64,000 nt of DNA from Candidatus Nanosyncoccus sp. (GCA_045589895.1 JAZNPY010000002.1:34546-98545); one strand, 5' to 3'. Shown: positions 2,451 to 7,780, counted from the first letter of the stretch. The notes: generated by a model from the letters alone, not told the origin. Program-made: numbers and translations.

Positions 2451-2479
2451 TGGACAAAAGCGCCCAGATTTGATATAAT
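2451..2479 (+). promoter_or_regulatory. Promoter facing the 3' end of the PemK-like gene
   Basis: TGGACA-N17-TATAAT with extended -10 (TGA-TATAAT); no ORF follows on this strand. Confidence 0.65.
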
Positions 2480-2484
2480 GGAGT

Positions 2485-2534
2485 CATATTCGGGAATACC
2501 CGCACCCTAGTTGAAAGACTAGGGGACATTTTTT
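2485..2534 (+). ncRNA. Candidate small two-hairpin RNA convergent with PemK-like toxin gene
   Basis: Follows the promoter. Hairpins CGGG-AATA-CCCG (2491-2502) and CCCTAGT-TGAAAG-ACTAGGG (2505-2524), then a T-run overlapping the toxin stop codon. Confidence 0.45.
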
Positions 2535-2940
2535 ATCTAGAGTATAGTCTATAGAATCCTTCCCAAATTTTATTAAAGTCTGTGGCCGGTAACTGGCCAA
2601 TACGGCTATATAACCTAGACGTGCTGTAAGTTCTGGCTTGAGAGAGCACAGCGGTCTCTAATCTACCTTGGAATTCAAATGGAACATACCATGATCCATC
2701 ATGGATTTGCGAGGTTAGCGGTACCCCCATAAAACCATATCTGCTTAATTTCTTCAAAACTACTACTGGTCGTGAAAAATACTCGCTTTTACCATTAATC
2801 TCTATGCCTACATTTTCACCAATTGCCACCCACCAAACTTCTCCATTGGCGATTTTTTGTAATTTACTTGAATTATGTTTTTTCTCTTTTATGGGAAACC
2901 AGTCAGATAATAGCTGCTGTTTATTATTTTCTTCGTGCAT
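2533..2940 (-). CDS. PemK/MazF-like toxin family protein, no adjacent antitoxin ORF
   Basis: GEVWWVAIGENVGIEINGK..FSRPVVVLKK..GVPLTS..AVLSQARTYSTSRL. Start moved to ATG 2940, which has SD-like AAGGAC. Confidence 0.8.
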   Translation of the reverse strand: MHEENNKQQLLSDWFPIKEKKHNSSKLQKIANGEVWWVAIGENVGIEINGKSEYFSRPVVVLKKLSRYGFMGVPLTSQIHDGSWYVPFEFQGRLETAVLSQARTYSTSRLYSRIGQLPATDFNKIWEGFYRLYSR

Positions 2941-3025
2941 ATTTTTAGTCCTTTTTAATTTTATACGCACGAGTATATATCAAATTTTGAAAAATTTACA
3001 AGCGCTAGCACCTAGACTTCTGAGT

Positions 3026-3787
3026 CTAAATGCAGGTGTAGCCGCCGTCGACTGGGAGGATTACGCCGGTGACGTAGCTAGCCTCTTTGCTCGCTAGGAA
3101 AACTGCAGCAGCGTCGAGTTCACCTGGCTTACCATAGCGTTCCATCGGGACATGGGTTTTTGCAAATTCTTGGAAACGTGGAGTGTCGAGTACTGGCTTT
3201 GTTAATTCGGTTTCGAAATAGCCTGGGCAAATTGCGTTGCAAGTAATTCCGTCGAGAGCCAATTCGGCGGCAACAGCACGGGTAAAGTTCACAACTCCGC
3301 CTTTCGAGGAATGATAGGCGACGGTATGAATTTCGGTGTTGCCGACTAAGCCGTACATGGAAGCGATATTAATAATGCGGCCATAATGGTTTTTCTGCAT
3401 GATTTTTGCGAACGCACGGGTCATCTTGAATACAGAAGTCATATCGGTGGCGATGGTGAAATCCCACTCATCGTCACTCATCTCAACCACACCTTTATCC
3501 TTCGAGGAACCGGCGCAGTTAAGCAAGATGTCGACGTGGCCAAACTCTTTTTCGGCAGCTTTGGCAGCGGCGTCAATATCCTCGGTCGAGGTCACATCAC
3601 ATTTGAGTGGTAAGACCTTAGTGTTGAATTCTTTTTTTAACTTCTCGGCTAGCTCTTCTAGACGTTCGACACGGCGAGCAAGAATCACAAGGCTGGCGCC
3701 CTGACGGGCAAAAGCGGTAGCCATCTGAACGCCGAGACCGGAACTGGCGCCTGTAACAACTGCAACTTTATCTTTTAAATCAAACAT
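3026..3787 (-). CDS. SDR family NAD(P)-dependent oxidoreductase (gluconate 5-dehydrogenase-like)
   Basis: TGASSGLG, NCAG, YHSSKGG catalytic YxxxK, NAICPG, VDGG. Confidence 0.92.
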   Translation of the reverse strand: MFDLKDKVAVVTGASSGLGVQMATAFARQGASLVILARRVERLEELAEKLKKEFNTKVLPLKCDVTSTEDIDAAAKAAEKEFGHVDILLNCAGSSKDKGVVEMSDDEWDFTIATDMTSVFKMTRAFAKIMQKNHYGRIINIASMYGLVGNTEIHTVAYHSSKGGVVNFTRAVAAELALDGITCNAICPGYFETELTKPVLDTPRFQEFAKTHVPMERYGKPGELDAAAVFLASKEASYVTGVILPVDGGYTCI

Positions 3788-3789
3788 TT

Positions 3790-4365
3790 TTACTCCTTTA
3801 CAATTACTGCTTCTTTAATGCTTTTACTGACTTCGTCGATATTATGCTTAATAATAATCGTATCGATCAGGCTTGAAACTCCATAGATAATCATCAGGAC
3901 TCCAGCGAAAGTAACCATGGCGATTTGGCCTTCCCAAGGATTGAGAATGAGCAAGATGCCGCAGATTAGCGATAGGATAGTGGTGACGATGGCGAAAGTG
4001 CCAGAGCTAGTGCCGCGGAGTGCCGCGGAGAAGCGACCAGAGGCGATTGCGCTCACGATGAACCAACAGCCGATGACGCTCGGGAAAATATTCATGACGG
4101 ACGGGCGGACGGCGAAAAGAAAACCGAGTACGAGCAAGACTACACCGACAAATGACGTGCTGAAGAAAGGCAGGATGCGACGACGGAAGTCAGAAACTAC
4201 GAGATAGGTACCGGACGCGAGACAGAAGATTGCGATAATCCAGCGGATAACATCTAGCGAAGTGTCTGGGGCTAATAGGAAAACGAGGCCCAAAACAACT
4301 AGCAGAAGTGCCGAGATTAAGGCAGTATTAATAAAGCCATTGATTTTCTTTTTCATTTCTTTCAT
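3790..4365 (-). CDS. DUF308/HdeD-like multi-pass membrane protein
   Basis: About six hydrophobic helices in two repeats (LGLVFLLAP / CGILLILNP); SD AGGAG upstream. Confidence 0.75.
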   Translation of the reverse strand: MKEMKKKINGFINTALISALLLVVLGLVFLLAPDTSLDVIRWIIAIFCLASGTYLVVSDFRRRILPFFSTSFVGVVLLVLGFLFAVRPSVMNIFPSVIGCWFIVSAIASGRFSAALRGTSSGTFAIVTTILSLICGILLILNPWEGQIAMVTFAGVLMIIYGVSSLIDTIIIKHNIDEVSKSIKEAVIVKE

Positions 4366-4462
4366 AGTAAAAAACTCCTTATGTTTCCTATTATAGCACT
4401 ACCCTATATAAAAAATAGCCTTTATTTTTGGAAAGATATATGATAGAATGATTTTAGGTCGT

Positions 4463-4670: not shown

Positions 4671-5657
4671 TTACCTCTTATGACCATTCTTTTGCTTACG
4701 CAAGGCAACGAATGCCAAAACGGTAGCAACGGTGAAGATGATTAGGCCAGAAATCAGATAGTCGAATCTCGACATATTGAGTTCGGCAAGGAAGCCACCC
4801 GTCTTTGGGACGTCTGGCGCCACTTCGTCCTGGTCACCATCGGTATCCGGGATATCCGGCGTGTCTGGCTCGTCAGGCGTATCTGGAGTATCTGGTTCGT
4901 CAGGACCATCTGGGGAAACGTAGTTCGCTTCGCTACTCACTATACCAGTAGCCGAAGTTAGAACTTCGCCGGCAGCATTCTTAGCTATTGCAGCAATAGT
5001 GTATTGACCGCTACTAGCATGATTGTCTCTAAACGGCAACGTGATGGTTTGGGTGCCTATGACTCCTGGGTTAGTAATCTGAACGTTGATCGGGCTAGAG
5101 AATACTGGTCTATTCGAAGAATCGTAAGCTTGAAGGTCGACCGAATTGACGGCGGAAGCATATTCAATTTCTACCGTTGGGTCGCCATTCTCTGCATTGG
5201 CAACCGTATTCATCTTTAACGGTATGTAGTAAAATTCTACGCTTGCATAATCCGAGCCATCGTTCACGGAAGAATCAAAGCGATATCTACCAAAACCTAG
5301 TCCGTTGGCATTGAGGTCGATAGGCAGCGCATGTGTGCCGTTGAGCTCGGCCGGCAGATACTCGCCATTCTTGGACCCACCAGTAGTAGTGTTGGCGATA
5401 GTGTAGGAAATCTTAACAGCCTGCGAATAGAAGAGGCCGATTTCCATATTATTGTTTAAAGTAATTGTTCCGTTGGCTGGACTTGTGATGTCTAGGCTAG
5501 CCACACTATCGAAGACATTCACCCTGAGGTTGACTGCTCCGCTGGTGCTACCAACAGCATCAACGTCCGGCGTAGGAACAGCAAAGGCATAGGCGGTCAT
5601 AGCTCCAACTATAGCTAAGCCACCTATGCCAAGTATACGTTTTTTGCTTTTTTGCAT
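4671..5657 (-). CDS. Secreted beta-rich surface protein with Pro/Asp linker and sortase-like VPKTG anchor
   Basis: N-terminal signal peptide; Ig-like Asn/Thr/Ser-rich body; PDEPDTPDTPDEPDTPDIPD linker; VPKTG, then a hydrophobic helix and RKQKNGHKR tail. Confidence 0.8.
   Translation of the reverse strand: MQKSKKRILGIGGLAIVGAMTAYAFAVPTPDVDAVGSTSGAVNLRVNVFDSVASLDITSPANGTITLNNNMEIGLFYSQAVKISYTIANTTTGGSKNGEYLPAELNGTHALPIDLNANGLGFGRYRFDSSVNDGSDYASVEFYYIPLKMNTVANAENGDPTVEIEYASAVNSVDLQAYDSSNRPVFSSPINVQITNPGVIGTQTITLPFRDNHASSGQYTIAAIAKNAAGEVLTSATGIVSSEANYVSPDGPDEPDTPDTPDEPDTPDIPDTDGDQDEVAPDVPKTGGFLAELNMSRFDYLISGLIIFTVATVLAFVALRKQKNGHKR
4840..4915 (-). repeat. Degenerate 9-bp coding repeats (PD[E/T/I])n
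   Basis: CCAGATGAG/CCAGATACT/CCTGACGA-type units encoding the Pro-Asp linker. Confidence 0.7.
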
Positions 5658-5731
5658 ACTCTACACTCTTTCTTTTTATTTTTAGTTTTTGTTTTGGCTT
5701 CGCAGAGTAGCGTACTCGCAATTTTTCAAAT

Positions 5732-6712
5732 CTAGACGAGGAGTCTGGATTTGCGCTCTCTGCGCTTCCTGATTAGGATTATAACCCAGATGATAATCAA
5801 TGTCAAGAGGATTATGCTTAAAATCATTACAAATACTGGCATAATCACGACAATCTTAGTTCTCTCTTCTACTACGGAGTTATTTAAAGCACTCACTTTG
5901 TAATGGACTTTGTAAAAACCGAGTAGTGGAGTCTCTTCCCACTCGGTAGTAACGCGGCGGGCGGTGTCCGGAAGAATATTGTAGGAACTATTCTTCAAGA
6001 AGAGCTGCTTGCCGAAAAGAGATTGGATATCGAGCTCATAGACAGCTTCGAAATCAGTGTTACCATTGTTCTCTACGCGGGAGCTAGCCGAAATTTTACC
6101 GGAAGTCATAAAGGTTTTGAAGCCGAAATCGGTGATTTTTGCTTCATCGATAGTATCACCATCGGTGTGACCATAGACGATTAAGCCGACGCGAGAGACT
6201 GTCTTAATACCGGAGCCAGAAACTTTACCCTCGACTTCGTCAGATTCAGCAAAGATAGTAGCATACTGACCGCCAGCAGGAATGCTATCCGGAACAGAGA
6301 TGCGATAGCGAACGGTTTGTTTCTCGCCTTTTTTCAGCTTGAAGTGGGCATCGCTAGTTAAAGAGCCATCGTCCTTATAGAACTGGATCCAGCGTGAAAT
6401 TTGGGTACGATTAGTTTCGTTACTAAAGCTAACGTTGTAGTCTTCATCACTGACCGAATATGGGGCAGCGTAGACATGATAGCCAAAGTCTTCGGAGCCG
6501 ATGTTCGAAACAGTGAAACTATAATCGCTATCCTCGCCAGGAATCAAAGTTACCTTATTGGATACCGGAGAAATCTGGAGCCAGATAGCAGGCTTAGAAT
6601 CTTCGGAAGAAGAGTCGTCAGTATCCTCAGCGTGGACAGTCGGGACAGCGGCAACGAGCGAGCTCAGCACTACTGCGGCTGCAGCTAGAATACTTACTAA
6701 ACGTTTACTCAT
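5732..6712 (-). CDS. DUF916/DUF3324-like (WxL-partner, PapD-like Ig) membrane-anchored protein 2
   Basis: Signal peptide; ISPVSNKVTLIPGE..FTVSN, PAGGQYATIFA, RVENNGN; C-terminal TM plus RKRRERK. Start moved to ATG 6712 (SD AGGAGG, overlapping the upstream stop). Confidence 0.75.
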   Translation of the reverse strand: MSKRLVSILAAAAVVLSSLVAAVPTVHAEDTDDSSSEDSKPAIWLQISPVSNKVTLIPGEDSDYSFTVSNIGSEDFGYHVYAAPYSVSDEDYNVSFSNETNRTQISRWIQFYKDDGSLTSDAHFKLKKGEKQTVRYRISVPDSIPAGGQYATIFAESDEVEGKVSGSGIKTVSRVGLIVYGHTDGDTIDEAKITDFGFKTFMTSGKISASSRVENNGNTDFEAVYELDIQSLFGKQLFLKNSSYNILPDTARRVTTEWEETPLLGFYKVHYKVSALNNSVVEERTKIVVIMPVFVMILSIILLTLIIIWVIILIRKRRERKSRLLV

Positions 6713-7694
6713 TTTCAGTTTCCTCCTTTTTTTCAGAATCACCTTTCTTTTTGCGAGAAACCTTGCTTTCTTTTCCACTGCGCTTACGAGCGCGGGAGAT
6801 AAGCCAGAAGATCATGAAGAAGATGATGGCAAAGATGATGAATAATAGCCAAATTGGGCAAATAAATACTAACTTTTTGTTTGTAGAAACTTGATCAAGG
6901 AAGCTAACGGTTTGTTCGACCCAGAAGATGCCGAGTCTAGGTGCACCATCCCAACTCATCGTACCAAAGCGCCTGGTCTCTGGCATGACGTCGAGTGAGC
7001 CCTTATTATCTTCGTTGTTATAGATCGTCTCTTTGTCGAAAAGTGGCCAAATCTTAAAAGTATATTCAGCAGTTGCTTCGACGTTGCCGTTATTCTCTAC
7101 GAGCGAGGTAACCGTAAGTGGTGGCTCGAAGACGATGCTAGGGATACTATTACTAACGACCGAGCCTTCTTTACGAGTTTCACCAGCGATCGAAGCATAG
7201 AAGATCATACCGACGCGGGAAATAGTGCGAACGTTATTCGCCTCACTAGAACCGTCACCGGTAGAAGCCATAATCGCAGCATACTGACCACCAGCAGGGG
7301 CGTCTTTCGGAACATTAACGGTAAAGTTAACGTCGGCTGATTCTCCTGCGGCGAGCGTGCCGCTCTTAGCCTTCTCGTCGAACGTAATCCACTCAGCGAT
7401 CCGACTGTATGTTCCAACATTATTGTAATTCTGAGTATAATTTTCGTCGACCACACTATATGGTACCGCTTCGACGGTATAATTAAATTCACCCTCGCCA
7501 ATATTCTGAACCTTCATCGAAGAAGTATAACTTCCACCCGGTTCAATCGAAACCTTCTGTTTCGTAGGTGTAATTTGGATAAAAGCTGGCGGAACTCCTT
7601 CGGCGGCAGCGGTAACTGGCGTCAGAAGCGCGGAGCCAACTGATGCTAGTGCGAAAAGCACAGCGGAAAATAATTTTGTGTATTTTTTAGCCAT
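6705..7694 (-). CDS. DUF916/DUF3324-like (WxL-partner, PapD-like Ig) membrane-anchored protein 1
   Basis: Paralog of the previous gene: ITPTKQKVSIEPGG..KVQN, PAGGQYAAIMA, LVENNGN, C-terminal TM and basic tail. Start moved to ATG 7694 (SD AAGGAGG). Confidence 0.75.
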   Translation of the reverse strand: MAKKYTKLFSAVLFALASVGSALLTPVTAAAEGVPPAFIQITPTKQKVSIEPGGSYTSSMKVQNIGEGEFNYTVEAVPYSVVDENYTQNYNNVGTYSRIAEWITFDEKAKSGTLAAGESADVNFTVNVPKDAPAGGQYAAIMASTGDGSSEANNVRTISRVGMIFYASIAGETRKEGSVVSNSIPSIVFEPPLTVTSLVENNGNVEATAEYTFKIWPLFDKETIYNNEDNKGSLDVMPETRRFGTMSWDGAPRLGIFWVEQTVSFLDQVSTNKKLVFICPIWLLFIIFAIIFFMIFWLISRARKRSGKESKVSRKKKGDSEKKEETENE

Positions 7695-7780
7695 TAACCT
7701 CCTTGTTATACGTTCGATTATACACGAGCACAAAGCGAAAATCAACCACATTTTTTCATAAACTTTTTAGCATAAAGGTC

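Follow-up and report, generated by a model that had tools for sequence, protein, structure and literature searches.

A MazF-fold toxin gene of Saccharibacteria is accompanied by a conserved convergent small RNA, a candidate RNA antitoxin

What restrains a MazF-type toxin whose gene has no antitoxin gene beside it? MazF is the textbook type II toxin, treated by the field as neutralised by a protein, and the question is raised by a locus at positions 2451-2940 of a 64,000-nucleotide stretch of DNA from Candidatus Nanosyncoccus sp. (GCA_045589895.1, JAZNPY010000002.1:34546-98545), the whole of which is called the window here. A sequence-only reading of the window had drawn attention to a PemK/MazF-like gene that left no room for a MazE-type antitoxin, and to a convergent promoter that would drive a two-hairpin RNA of roughly 50 nt ending at the toxin stop codon; it proposed an RNA antitoxin, antisense or decoy, and with it a new toxin–antitoxin architecture. 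Comparison of 155 related loci identifies the convergent small RNA (sRNA) as a real, conserved and structured gene and, on sequence evidence, as the toxin's only constant partner. The features of the locus are as follows.

2533-2940, minus strand: open reading frame (ORF) of the MazF/PemK-fold toxin; coding region 2536-2940, TAA stop 2533-2535, 135 amino acids (aa) from the ATG at 2940.
2949-2953, minus strand: Shine-Dalgarno sequence AAGGA, 8 nt before the toxin ATG, read directly in the sequence.
2972-3001, minus strand: weak promoter-like site for the toxin gene, TTGTAA-18-TATACT, 9/12 match.
2451-2479, plus strand: sRNA promoter, 11/12 match; -35 box TGGACA at 2451-2456, 17-nt spacer, TG at 2471-2472, -10 box TATAAT at 2474-2479.
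2486-2534, plus strand: sRNA of about 49 nt, AUAUUCGGGAAUACCCGCACCCUAGUUGAAAGACUAGGGGACAUUUUUU, with a putative 5' end at the seventh base after the -10 box.
2486-2490, plus strand: sRNA 5' tail AUAUU.
2491-2502, plus strand: sRNA hairpin 1, CGGG-AAUA-CCCG, followed by the linker CA.
2505-2524, plus strand: sRNA hairpin 2 and terminator, CCCUAGUU-GAAA-GACUAGGG.
2525-2534, plus strand: sRNA tail GACAUUUUUU, with a T-run at 2529-2534.
2529-2535, no strand assigned: the U-tail of the sRNA and the stop codon of the toxin overlap here; on the toxin strand this reads TAA, then an A-run.

The window at 2536-2940 encodes a MazF-fold protein with the MazF motifs, which is predicted to be an endoribonuclease toxin. 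The protein matches Pfam PemK_toxin (PF02452) with 34.9 bits, above the cut-off of 23.1 (E 2e-8), and the PHROG family phrog_9567, annotated 'MazF-like growth inhibitor' (E 3.4e-19); none of the NCBIfam and PADLOC models searched fits it. The AlphaFold2 model of the protein, based on 30 homologues, reaches a mean predicted local distance difference test (pLDDT) score of 80.4. When this model was searched with Foldseek, the best hits were the solved MazF structures of S. aureus, B. cereus, B. subtilis, M. tuberculosis and E. coli (E 1e-7 to 1e-6, template modelling (TM) score 0.6-0.75), which places the protein on the SH3-like barrel of MazF and Kid; the matches in this fold search were to MazF and not to ToxN. 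A profile-to-PDB alignment puts R57-P58 and PLTSQ onto the VRPV and ITAQ motifs of B. subtilis MazF, which we take to hold the catalytic residues Arg25 and Thr48. Across the toxin family R57-P58 is invariant and the second motif reads PLTSQ or PLSTQ. The family also shares an additional helix at the N-terminus (residues 2-21, in which W14, K18 and H22 are conserved) that canonical MazF does not have, and which is modelled with low confidence (pLDDT ~60). One distant family member, P0268 (397 aa), joins an N-terminal MazF-like domain to a long C-terminal extension that ends in an HNH-like motif (…HFDHILPFSKGGTS…NIQLLCQKHNLQKSDK).

The gene for a short-chain dehydrogenase (SDR) upstream ends at 3026, leaving a gap of 85 bp to the toxin gene, and a MazE-type antitoxin would indeed not fit there. 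The toxin gene had also been credited with its own promoter and Shine-Dalgarno sequence: the latter stands, and the former comes down to the weak 9/12 site, which is not conserved as such in homologues. Many homologues (L023, L036, L043, L050, L051, L053, L056, L060, L061, L063, L069, L074 and others) have a TGnTATAAT that ends 7 nt before the ATG, so that their toxin mRNAs would be leaderless; others, the window included, have a Shine-Dalgarno sequence.

The convergent element on the other strand bears out the earlier description closely, in its near-consensus promoter, in its two hairpins and in the T-run at 2529-2534 that overlaps the TAA. The start of the sRNA was placed from the position of its -10 box and from the mapped start of CJpv3, a Campylobacter sRNA described below that begins at the seventh nucleotide after its own -10. 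The RNA folds with a minimum free energy of -17.5 kcal/mol (z = -3.75), and only 1/200 shuffles folds as well. Apart from hairpin 2 with its U-run, no convincing intrinsic terminator lies nearby. On the toxin strand the hairpins are not followed by a U-run, which indicates that they terminate the sRNA and not the toxin mRNA. A search of Rfam with 2451-2540 returned no curated family even at E <= 1. Promoter-like sites number 10 in this DNA where 4.6 are expected in shuffles, and terminator-like sites occur at chance level; a lone 11/12 promoter in such AT-rich DNA is therefore not convincing by itself, and the case for the sRNA is a comparative one.

The toxin protein has more than 200 close relatives, the named ones being "Candidatus Saccharibacteria". 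We took 80 genome loci for comparison, with toxin relatives at 48-66% identity, and read the DNA after each stop codon. The sRNA element is present at the same position after the toxin stop in 77/80 of them. Read along the toxin strand, the order is TAA and an A-run, a GC-rich hairpin of variable sequence, UGCGGG-loop-CCCGAAUAU, 6 bases, the complement of TATAAT, 17 bases and the complement of TTGACA. Among 77 elements (the window and 76 loci), the -10 box is TATAAT in 53 and TACAAT in 17, an upstream TG is found in 61, the spacer is 17 nt long in 62, and 6 nt separate the -10 from AUAUUCG in 73. Several genomes hold two or more copies of the module, and the genomic context changes between loci.

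A covariance model, R1, was built from 66 distinct Saccharibacteria RNAs and finds 91 copies in 81 sources, including a single copy in the window (66.5 bits, E 3e-14; next best match 16 bits). Standard pairs make up 94.8% of paired cells in the R1 alignment, 11/12 pairs show changes on both sides, and the covariation score is reached by 0/500 shuffles and is lost when partners are slid. Since this alignment was fitted to the model these figures lean towards structure, and an alignment made with MAFFT only gives the same picture. G.U pairs outnumber A.C mismatches by 50 to 17, which argues that the fold is selected on the sRNA strand and not on the toxin mRNA strand. The two hairpins evolve differently: the 5' tail and hairpin 1 are near-invariant, with the changes in the stem of hairpin 1 compensated (CGGG/CCCG, CGAG/CUCG, CGGC/GCCG, UGGG/CCCA), and hairpin 2 varies freely with compensation. 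Tandem pairs of sRNAs downstream of a single toxin gene were seen only in L031 (625-800) and L064 (6921-7051).

The element extends to a much more distant clade. When 1.84 billion representative proteins were searched with a profile, 1,483 clusters matched at E <= 1e-10, and the matches take in the N-terminal helix. Six distant members (~30% identical to the window protein) were used to scan metagenome contigs, and the 75 loci so obtained come for the most part from groundwater and aquifers. Of these loci, 69/75 have a -10 box followed after six bases by an RNA that reaches up to the toxin stop codon, with the consensus ACAAUUUGGG-loop-CCCAC-UGAU-GC hairpin-GUGAnnAUUUU. R1, although trained only on Saccharibacteria, detects 51 of the distant RNAs at exactly the expected position with 17-31 bits. 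Their own alignment is 94% paired, with a covariation that 0/500 shuffles reach, and at the first pair of the stem one clade has C-G where the other has U-A. Over both clades, promoter, spacing, start distance and hairpin 1 occupy the same position in ~146/155 loci. The sRNA is thus an old conserved gene that has been kept with the toxin family while the protein diverged to ~30% identity.

No protein shows a comparable association. Clustering of ORFs of at least 40 aa within 1-1.2 kb of the toxin in the 80 + 75 loci gave no conserved family; the most widespread neighbour, a large surface protein of varying position and orientation, occurs in at most 15/80 loci, and no family exceeds 5/75 of the distant loci. 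No gene of the MazE, PemI, AbrB or ribbon-helix-helix (RHH) type is conserved upstream or downstream of the toxin across the 155 loci, and the window locus has no adjacent co-transcribed protein antitoxin of the MazEF kind. The toxin and the sRNA behave together as a small mobile two-part unit. Additional R1 copies fall next to other toxin paralogues, form the second member of a tandem pair (L031, L064), accompany fragments and pseudogenes of the toxin (L032 twice, L077), or are "orphans" that keep intact promoters and the final codons of a toxin otherwise lost (L022, ...GGFKRLYC*; L007, ...HLE*; L007 and L009 are among the cases with toxin remnants). Only one intact toxin was found without an adjacent sRNA, in L039, where the toxin lies at 3983-4378 and the sRNA at 5938-5990 (61.8 bits), 1.56 kb downstream, with a block of minus-strand repeat-protein ORFs in between; this gap is either an insertion, which would make the locus a natural test of action in trans, or an artefact of assembly. 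That the sRNA outlives the toxin and the reverse almost never happens is what antitoxin function and addiction predict. The proposal of an RNA antitoxin has therefore gained comparative support, from a conserved sRNA that survives toxin decay and from the want of a protein partner.

The claim that the architecture is new is not supported by a search of phage and plasmid records. Relatives found there by tblastn come only from Campylobacterota, and their identities to the window protein are 39% for C. jejuni prophages CJIE4 (E 6e-14), 42% for Nitratiruptor plasmids (E 9e-20), 36-39% for Helicobacter plasmids and 31.8% for plasmid pVir of C. jejuni 81-176 (E 3e-9; the match covers 76% of the query and takes in the N-terminal W..K helix). 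The same convergent layout recurs on these plasmids and prophages, with a convergent TGnTATAAT promoter in 4/5 loci read (pVir, Nitratiruptor, H. suis and CJIE4) and an RNA ending in hairpins at the toxin stop in three of those four. On pVir it is expressed. Dugar et al. (2013; PMC3656092, Table S12) report, from differential RNA sequencing and Northern blot, the 77-nt sRNA CJpv3 on the minus strand (31119->31043). The CJpv3 probe maps just downstream of the PemK/MazF gene CJJ81176_pVir0047 (NC_008770, 30634-31038; 134 aa), and the RNA ends 5 nt from the toxin stop; among the three sRNAs reported on pVir, it is the one placed beside a toxin-like gene. Papers that cite Shen et al. (2016; Mol Microbiol 101:909, PMID 27291507) summarise CjrA of pVir as the antisense sRNA antitoxin of a type I system, cjrA/cjpT (PMC10470494, PMC7826846). 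A literature search found no text that states which ORF is CjpT or equates CjpT with pVir0047; that cjrA/cjpT is CJpv3 with the pVir PemK gene is very likely, but unproven. The layout therefore exists elsewhere, is expressed and, judging from these summaries, has apparently been characterised as type I on a Campylobacter plasmid.

The likeness between the pVir and window loci lies in a homologous toxin, a convergent sRNA with a TGnTATAAT promoter and a start at the seventh nucleotide after the -10, a GC hairpin close to the toxin stop (5 nt away in CJpv3), and the lack of an adjacent protein antitoxin. The two RNAs differ in length (77 nt against ~49 nt) and have no detectable sequence in common: R1 has no match in the Campylobacterota loci L081-L085, and only the general layout of 5' hairpin(s), a 3' CCC..GGG hairpin and an A/U tail is shared. 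The pVir module is plasmid-borne in a proteobacterium, whereas that of the window is chromosomal and, in Saccharibacteria, multi-copy. On a C. coli plasmid (L085, 1241-1375) a 44-aa ORF for a helix-turn-helix (HTH) 'transcriptional regulator' lies downstream of the toxin instead, and on a Nitratiruptor plasmid (L082, 1186-1374) an RHH-like 62-aa ORF (…TIRVEDDLWDKFKKIA…) follows it. Going by these ORFs, some Campylobacterota members may have, or may also have, protein partners.

We favour, without great assurance, the reading that the window locus is a MazF-fold toxin with a cis-encoded convergent RNA antitoxin of about 50 nt that would act mainly as antisense, possibly with a binding component. 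As the toxin strand has no U-run, the toxin mRNA would read through the sRNA gene and so carry a 3' untranslated region (UTR) fully complementary to the sRNA; after this read-through it may end at a palindrome at 2359-2382. The sRNA, abundant by virtue of its near-consensus extended -10 promoter, would pair with this 3' region, and either the duplex would be cut by an RNase III type activity or the protective 3' hairpins would be lost, keeping toxin mRNA and protein low. If the module or the supply of sRNA were lost, the toxin would accumulate and cleave cellular RNA.

The antisense model leaves one part of the sRNA unexplained. A cis-antisense RNA is complementary to its target whatever its sequence, and so there is no need for it to preserve the AUAUU tail and the YGGG/CCCR stem of hairpin 1; yet this 5' part (AUAUUCGGG..CCCGC, or ACAAUUUGGG..CCCAC in the distant clade) is conserved far beyond what cis-antisense action requires. 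It probably has an additional role, for which recognition by the toxin or by an RNase is the simplest candidate. Targets for pairing in trans were considered and rejected. Pairing of the 5' tail with the toxin 5' UTR or start was discarded, as toxin leaders are not conserved. Inside the toxin coding sequence (for example at the KSEYFSRP codons) an exact complement of the tail is present in only 6/76 loci, and G.U-tolerant matches are scattered, occurring in 44/76 loci as compared with 29% for equally long stretches of flanking sequence. Depletion of k-mers derived from the tail (ATATT, TATTC and others) in toxin coding sequences, considered as a clue to the cleavage motif, gave small and inconsistent differences. 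With no conserved pairing target, and with the toxin as the sole partner that co-occurs everywhere, recognition by a protein is the simplest reading that remains.

Several observations weigh against the antisense-antitoxin reading. The overlap of the toxin mRNA with the sRNA beyond the stop codon depends on the presumed read-through, and the strong conservation of the sRNA 5' part is atypical of pure cis-antisense RNAs. In L039, a single metagenome-assembled genome, the distance of 1.56 kb between sRNA and intact toxin means that a 3' overlap would not work. A protein antitoxin could be encoded outside the 64 kb, and the parallel with cjrA/cjpT depends on the likely identity of that system with the CJpv3 locus. 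RNA-type sequencing runs that match the window contribute a few low-depth contigs without strand information; runs matching a Nanosynbacter locus cover only 4% of its words.

The same conservation can be read as the mark of a type III-like system, in which the sRNA would neutralise the toxin by acting on the protein itself, with the 5' tail and hairpin 1 lying in the RNA-binding groove of MazF as a pseudo-substrate or decoy; hairpin 2 would then be a terminator or stabiliser only, and the pairing with mRNA incidental. This is unlikely, though far from negligible. It would account for a 5' tail and hairpin 1 that stay near-invariant, with compensated stem changes, across toxins diverged to ~30% identity while hairpin 2 is free, and the orphan and tandem sRNAs together with L039 suggest action in trans; ToxN, the toxin of type III systems, itself has a MazF/Kid-like fold. 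But the sRNA forms no tandem repeat array and is neither upstream of the toxin nor co-transcribed with it, unlike in ToxIN, CptIN and TenpIN; the fold search gives MazF and not ToxN; the overlap with the stop codon and the full complementarity to a read-through transcript make pairing hard to avoid; and the Campylobacter relative is described, in the summaries cited above, as type I. Binding of the sRNA by the toxin is itself a proposal from the conservation of the 5' part. There is likewise a small but real chance of a hybrid between types I and III, in which a toxin clade of ~1,500 clusters at 50% identity would be neutralised by direct binding of a non-repetitive hairpin RNA of ~50 nt that is also antisense to the 3' UTR, and the AUAUUCGGG..CCCGC element would be the recognition or pseudo-substrate site of the toxin. 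The clade is common in Saccharibacteria and in other groundwater and gut lineages, and a system of this kind, if true, would have no described equivalent.

Two further readings deny the sRNA an antitoxin role. The sRNA might be an element of transcriptional interference at the 3' end of the toxin gene, or an independent regulatory RNA that travels with it, the toxin being controlled by its N-terminal helix as an intramolecular lid or by a distant protein antitoxin, or being harmless at native levels. The extra helix and its conserved residues would fit such a lid, and the RHH- or HTH-type ORFs downstream in some Campylobacterota relatives could be protein antitoxins. We think this quite improbable, since no protein neighbour is conserved in the 155 loci, the helix is a low-confidence part of the model, and the sRNA is retained beside decayed toxins, where an element that served only termination or interference would be expected to degenerate together with the gene. 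To the notion that an ordinary bidirectional terminator happens to lie next to a fortuitous AT-rich promoter match we give virtually no weight. The promoter and terminator counts of this DNA are compatible with it, but the element keeps its position with covariation in nearly all loci, has a U-run only on the sRNA strand, is matched by R1 far above the next site in the window, and has a counterpart at the homologous C. jejuni locus that yields an RNA on Northern blot (PMC3656092); the comparative data already refute it.

Other described systems that resemble the window locus in layout are type I modules with convergent antisense RNAs that overlap the toxin 3' end, such as txpA/RatA and bsrG/SR4 of B. 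subtilis and fst/RNA II of the E. faecalis par locus. They have a shared hairpin at the 3' overlap, a strong constitutive antitoxin promoter and duplex-dependent decay of the mRNA, and the same 3'-overlap logic is proposed here. Their toxins are hydrophobic membrane peptides of less than 60 aa, whereas that of the window is a soluble MazF-fold protein of 135 aa. To our knowledge, the antisense RNAs of these systems are not conserved in sequence over such distances. A small hydrophobic peptide is typical of type I toxins, SymE and RalR being exceptions, and the window toxin is not of that kind. Another hallmark of type I is an antitoxin sRNA that is encoded at the toxin locus and complementary to the toxin mRNA; the window shows a convergent sRNA gene that overlaps the stop codon, and full complementarity would depend on the presumed read-through.

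The type III systems ToxIN, CptIN and TenpIN share with the prediction for the window a Kid/MazF-like endoribonuclease held in check by a small structured RNA, and the conserved motif of the window sRNA suggests recognition by a protein as well. They differ in an RNA made of tandem repeats that precedes the toxin on the same strand, in one transcript, where the window has a single unit, downstream and on the opposite strand, with no sign of processing; moreover, the window toxin is assigned by Pfam to PemK_toxin, and its structural matches are to MazF and not to ToxN. With canonical MazEF, PemIK and Kis-Kid the window locus has in common the MazF fold, with the Arg-Pro and Thr/Ser-Gln motifs at the positions of those of B. 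subtilis MazF, and it departs from them in the extra N-terminal helix and in a convergent sRNA in place of the protein antitoxin.

What is new is an sRNA family that extends across Saccharibacteria and the candidate phyla radiation (CPR), is unannotated and is not in Rfam. The window locus, its ~150 relatives and the pVir locus together make a MazF subfamily that travels with a convergent sRNA and without a protein partner; that, on this comparative evidence, the whole subfamily appears RNA-partnered is new as well, and so is the conserved 5' hairpin, which makes a direct RNA–protein mechanism worth testing and raises the question of whether an RNA can inhibit a MazF-fold nuclease by binding it. 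Few regulatory RNAs and few addiction or defence modules are known from Saccharibacteria and other small-genome episymbiotic lineages, and a well-defined multi-copy RNA family with a covariance model, R1, is now available for their annotation. A phage origin of the toxin was considered and rejected: there are no relatives in IMG/VR contigs, no PADLOC model fits, and the phage collection gives only Campylobacter prophages.

The module stands out from its surroundings, with a G+C content of 35.5% against 46-50% around it. Past the toxin gene lie the sRNA element and then tRNA-Lys, and the intervening DNA contains the palindrome mentioned above.

2359-2382, no strand assigned: palindrome AAAAAGAGAGC/GCTCTCTTTTT with A/T runs at both sides, a possible bidirectional terminator.

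The 3' end of the gene for tRNA-Lys(UUU) (2190-2266) recurs in part, at an exact spacing of 81 nt, at 2319-2347 (all 29 nt identical) and again at 2400-2428, and the sRNA promoter begins directly after the last of these. A 27-nt direct repeat, CCGACTCACCATTTTTTGTGCTTTAAA, is found at 2256-2282 and 2418-2444, and long hairpins near the tRNA gene pair 2287-2299 with 2319-2331. The region 2190-2451 looks like the remnants of repeated integration at a tRNA 3' end. On the far side of the tRNA gene, at 2054-2122, two near-consensus promoters stand back to back as a 29-nt imperfect inverted repeat, both with an upstream TG: TTGACT-17-TATAAT on the minus strand, towards typA/bipA (239-2044), and TTGACA-17-TATAAT on the plus strand, towards tRNA-Lys.

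Elsewhere in the window, three minus-strand genes at 4671-7751 encode secreted or surface-anchored proteins; one of them (328 aa) carries a PDTPDEPDTPD repeat and has a membrane anchor at its C-terminus, and the remaining two are paralogues of 348 aa each, with reading frames that overlap by ~70 nt. The window matches bovine gut metagenomes, and metagenome contigs of other samples carry the variants G2452A (in the sRNA -35 box), C2463T, C2710T and G2713A, so that the strain is, at low depth, polymorphic here.

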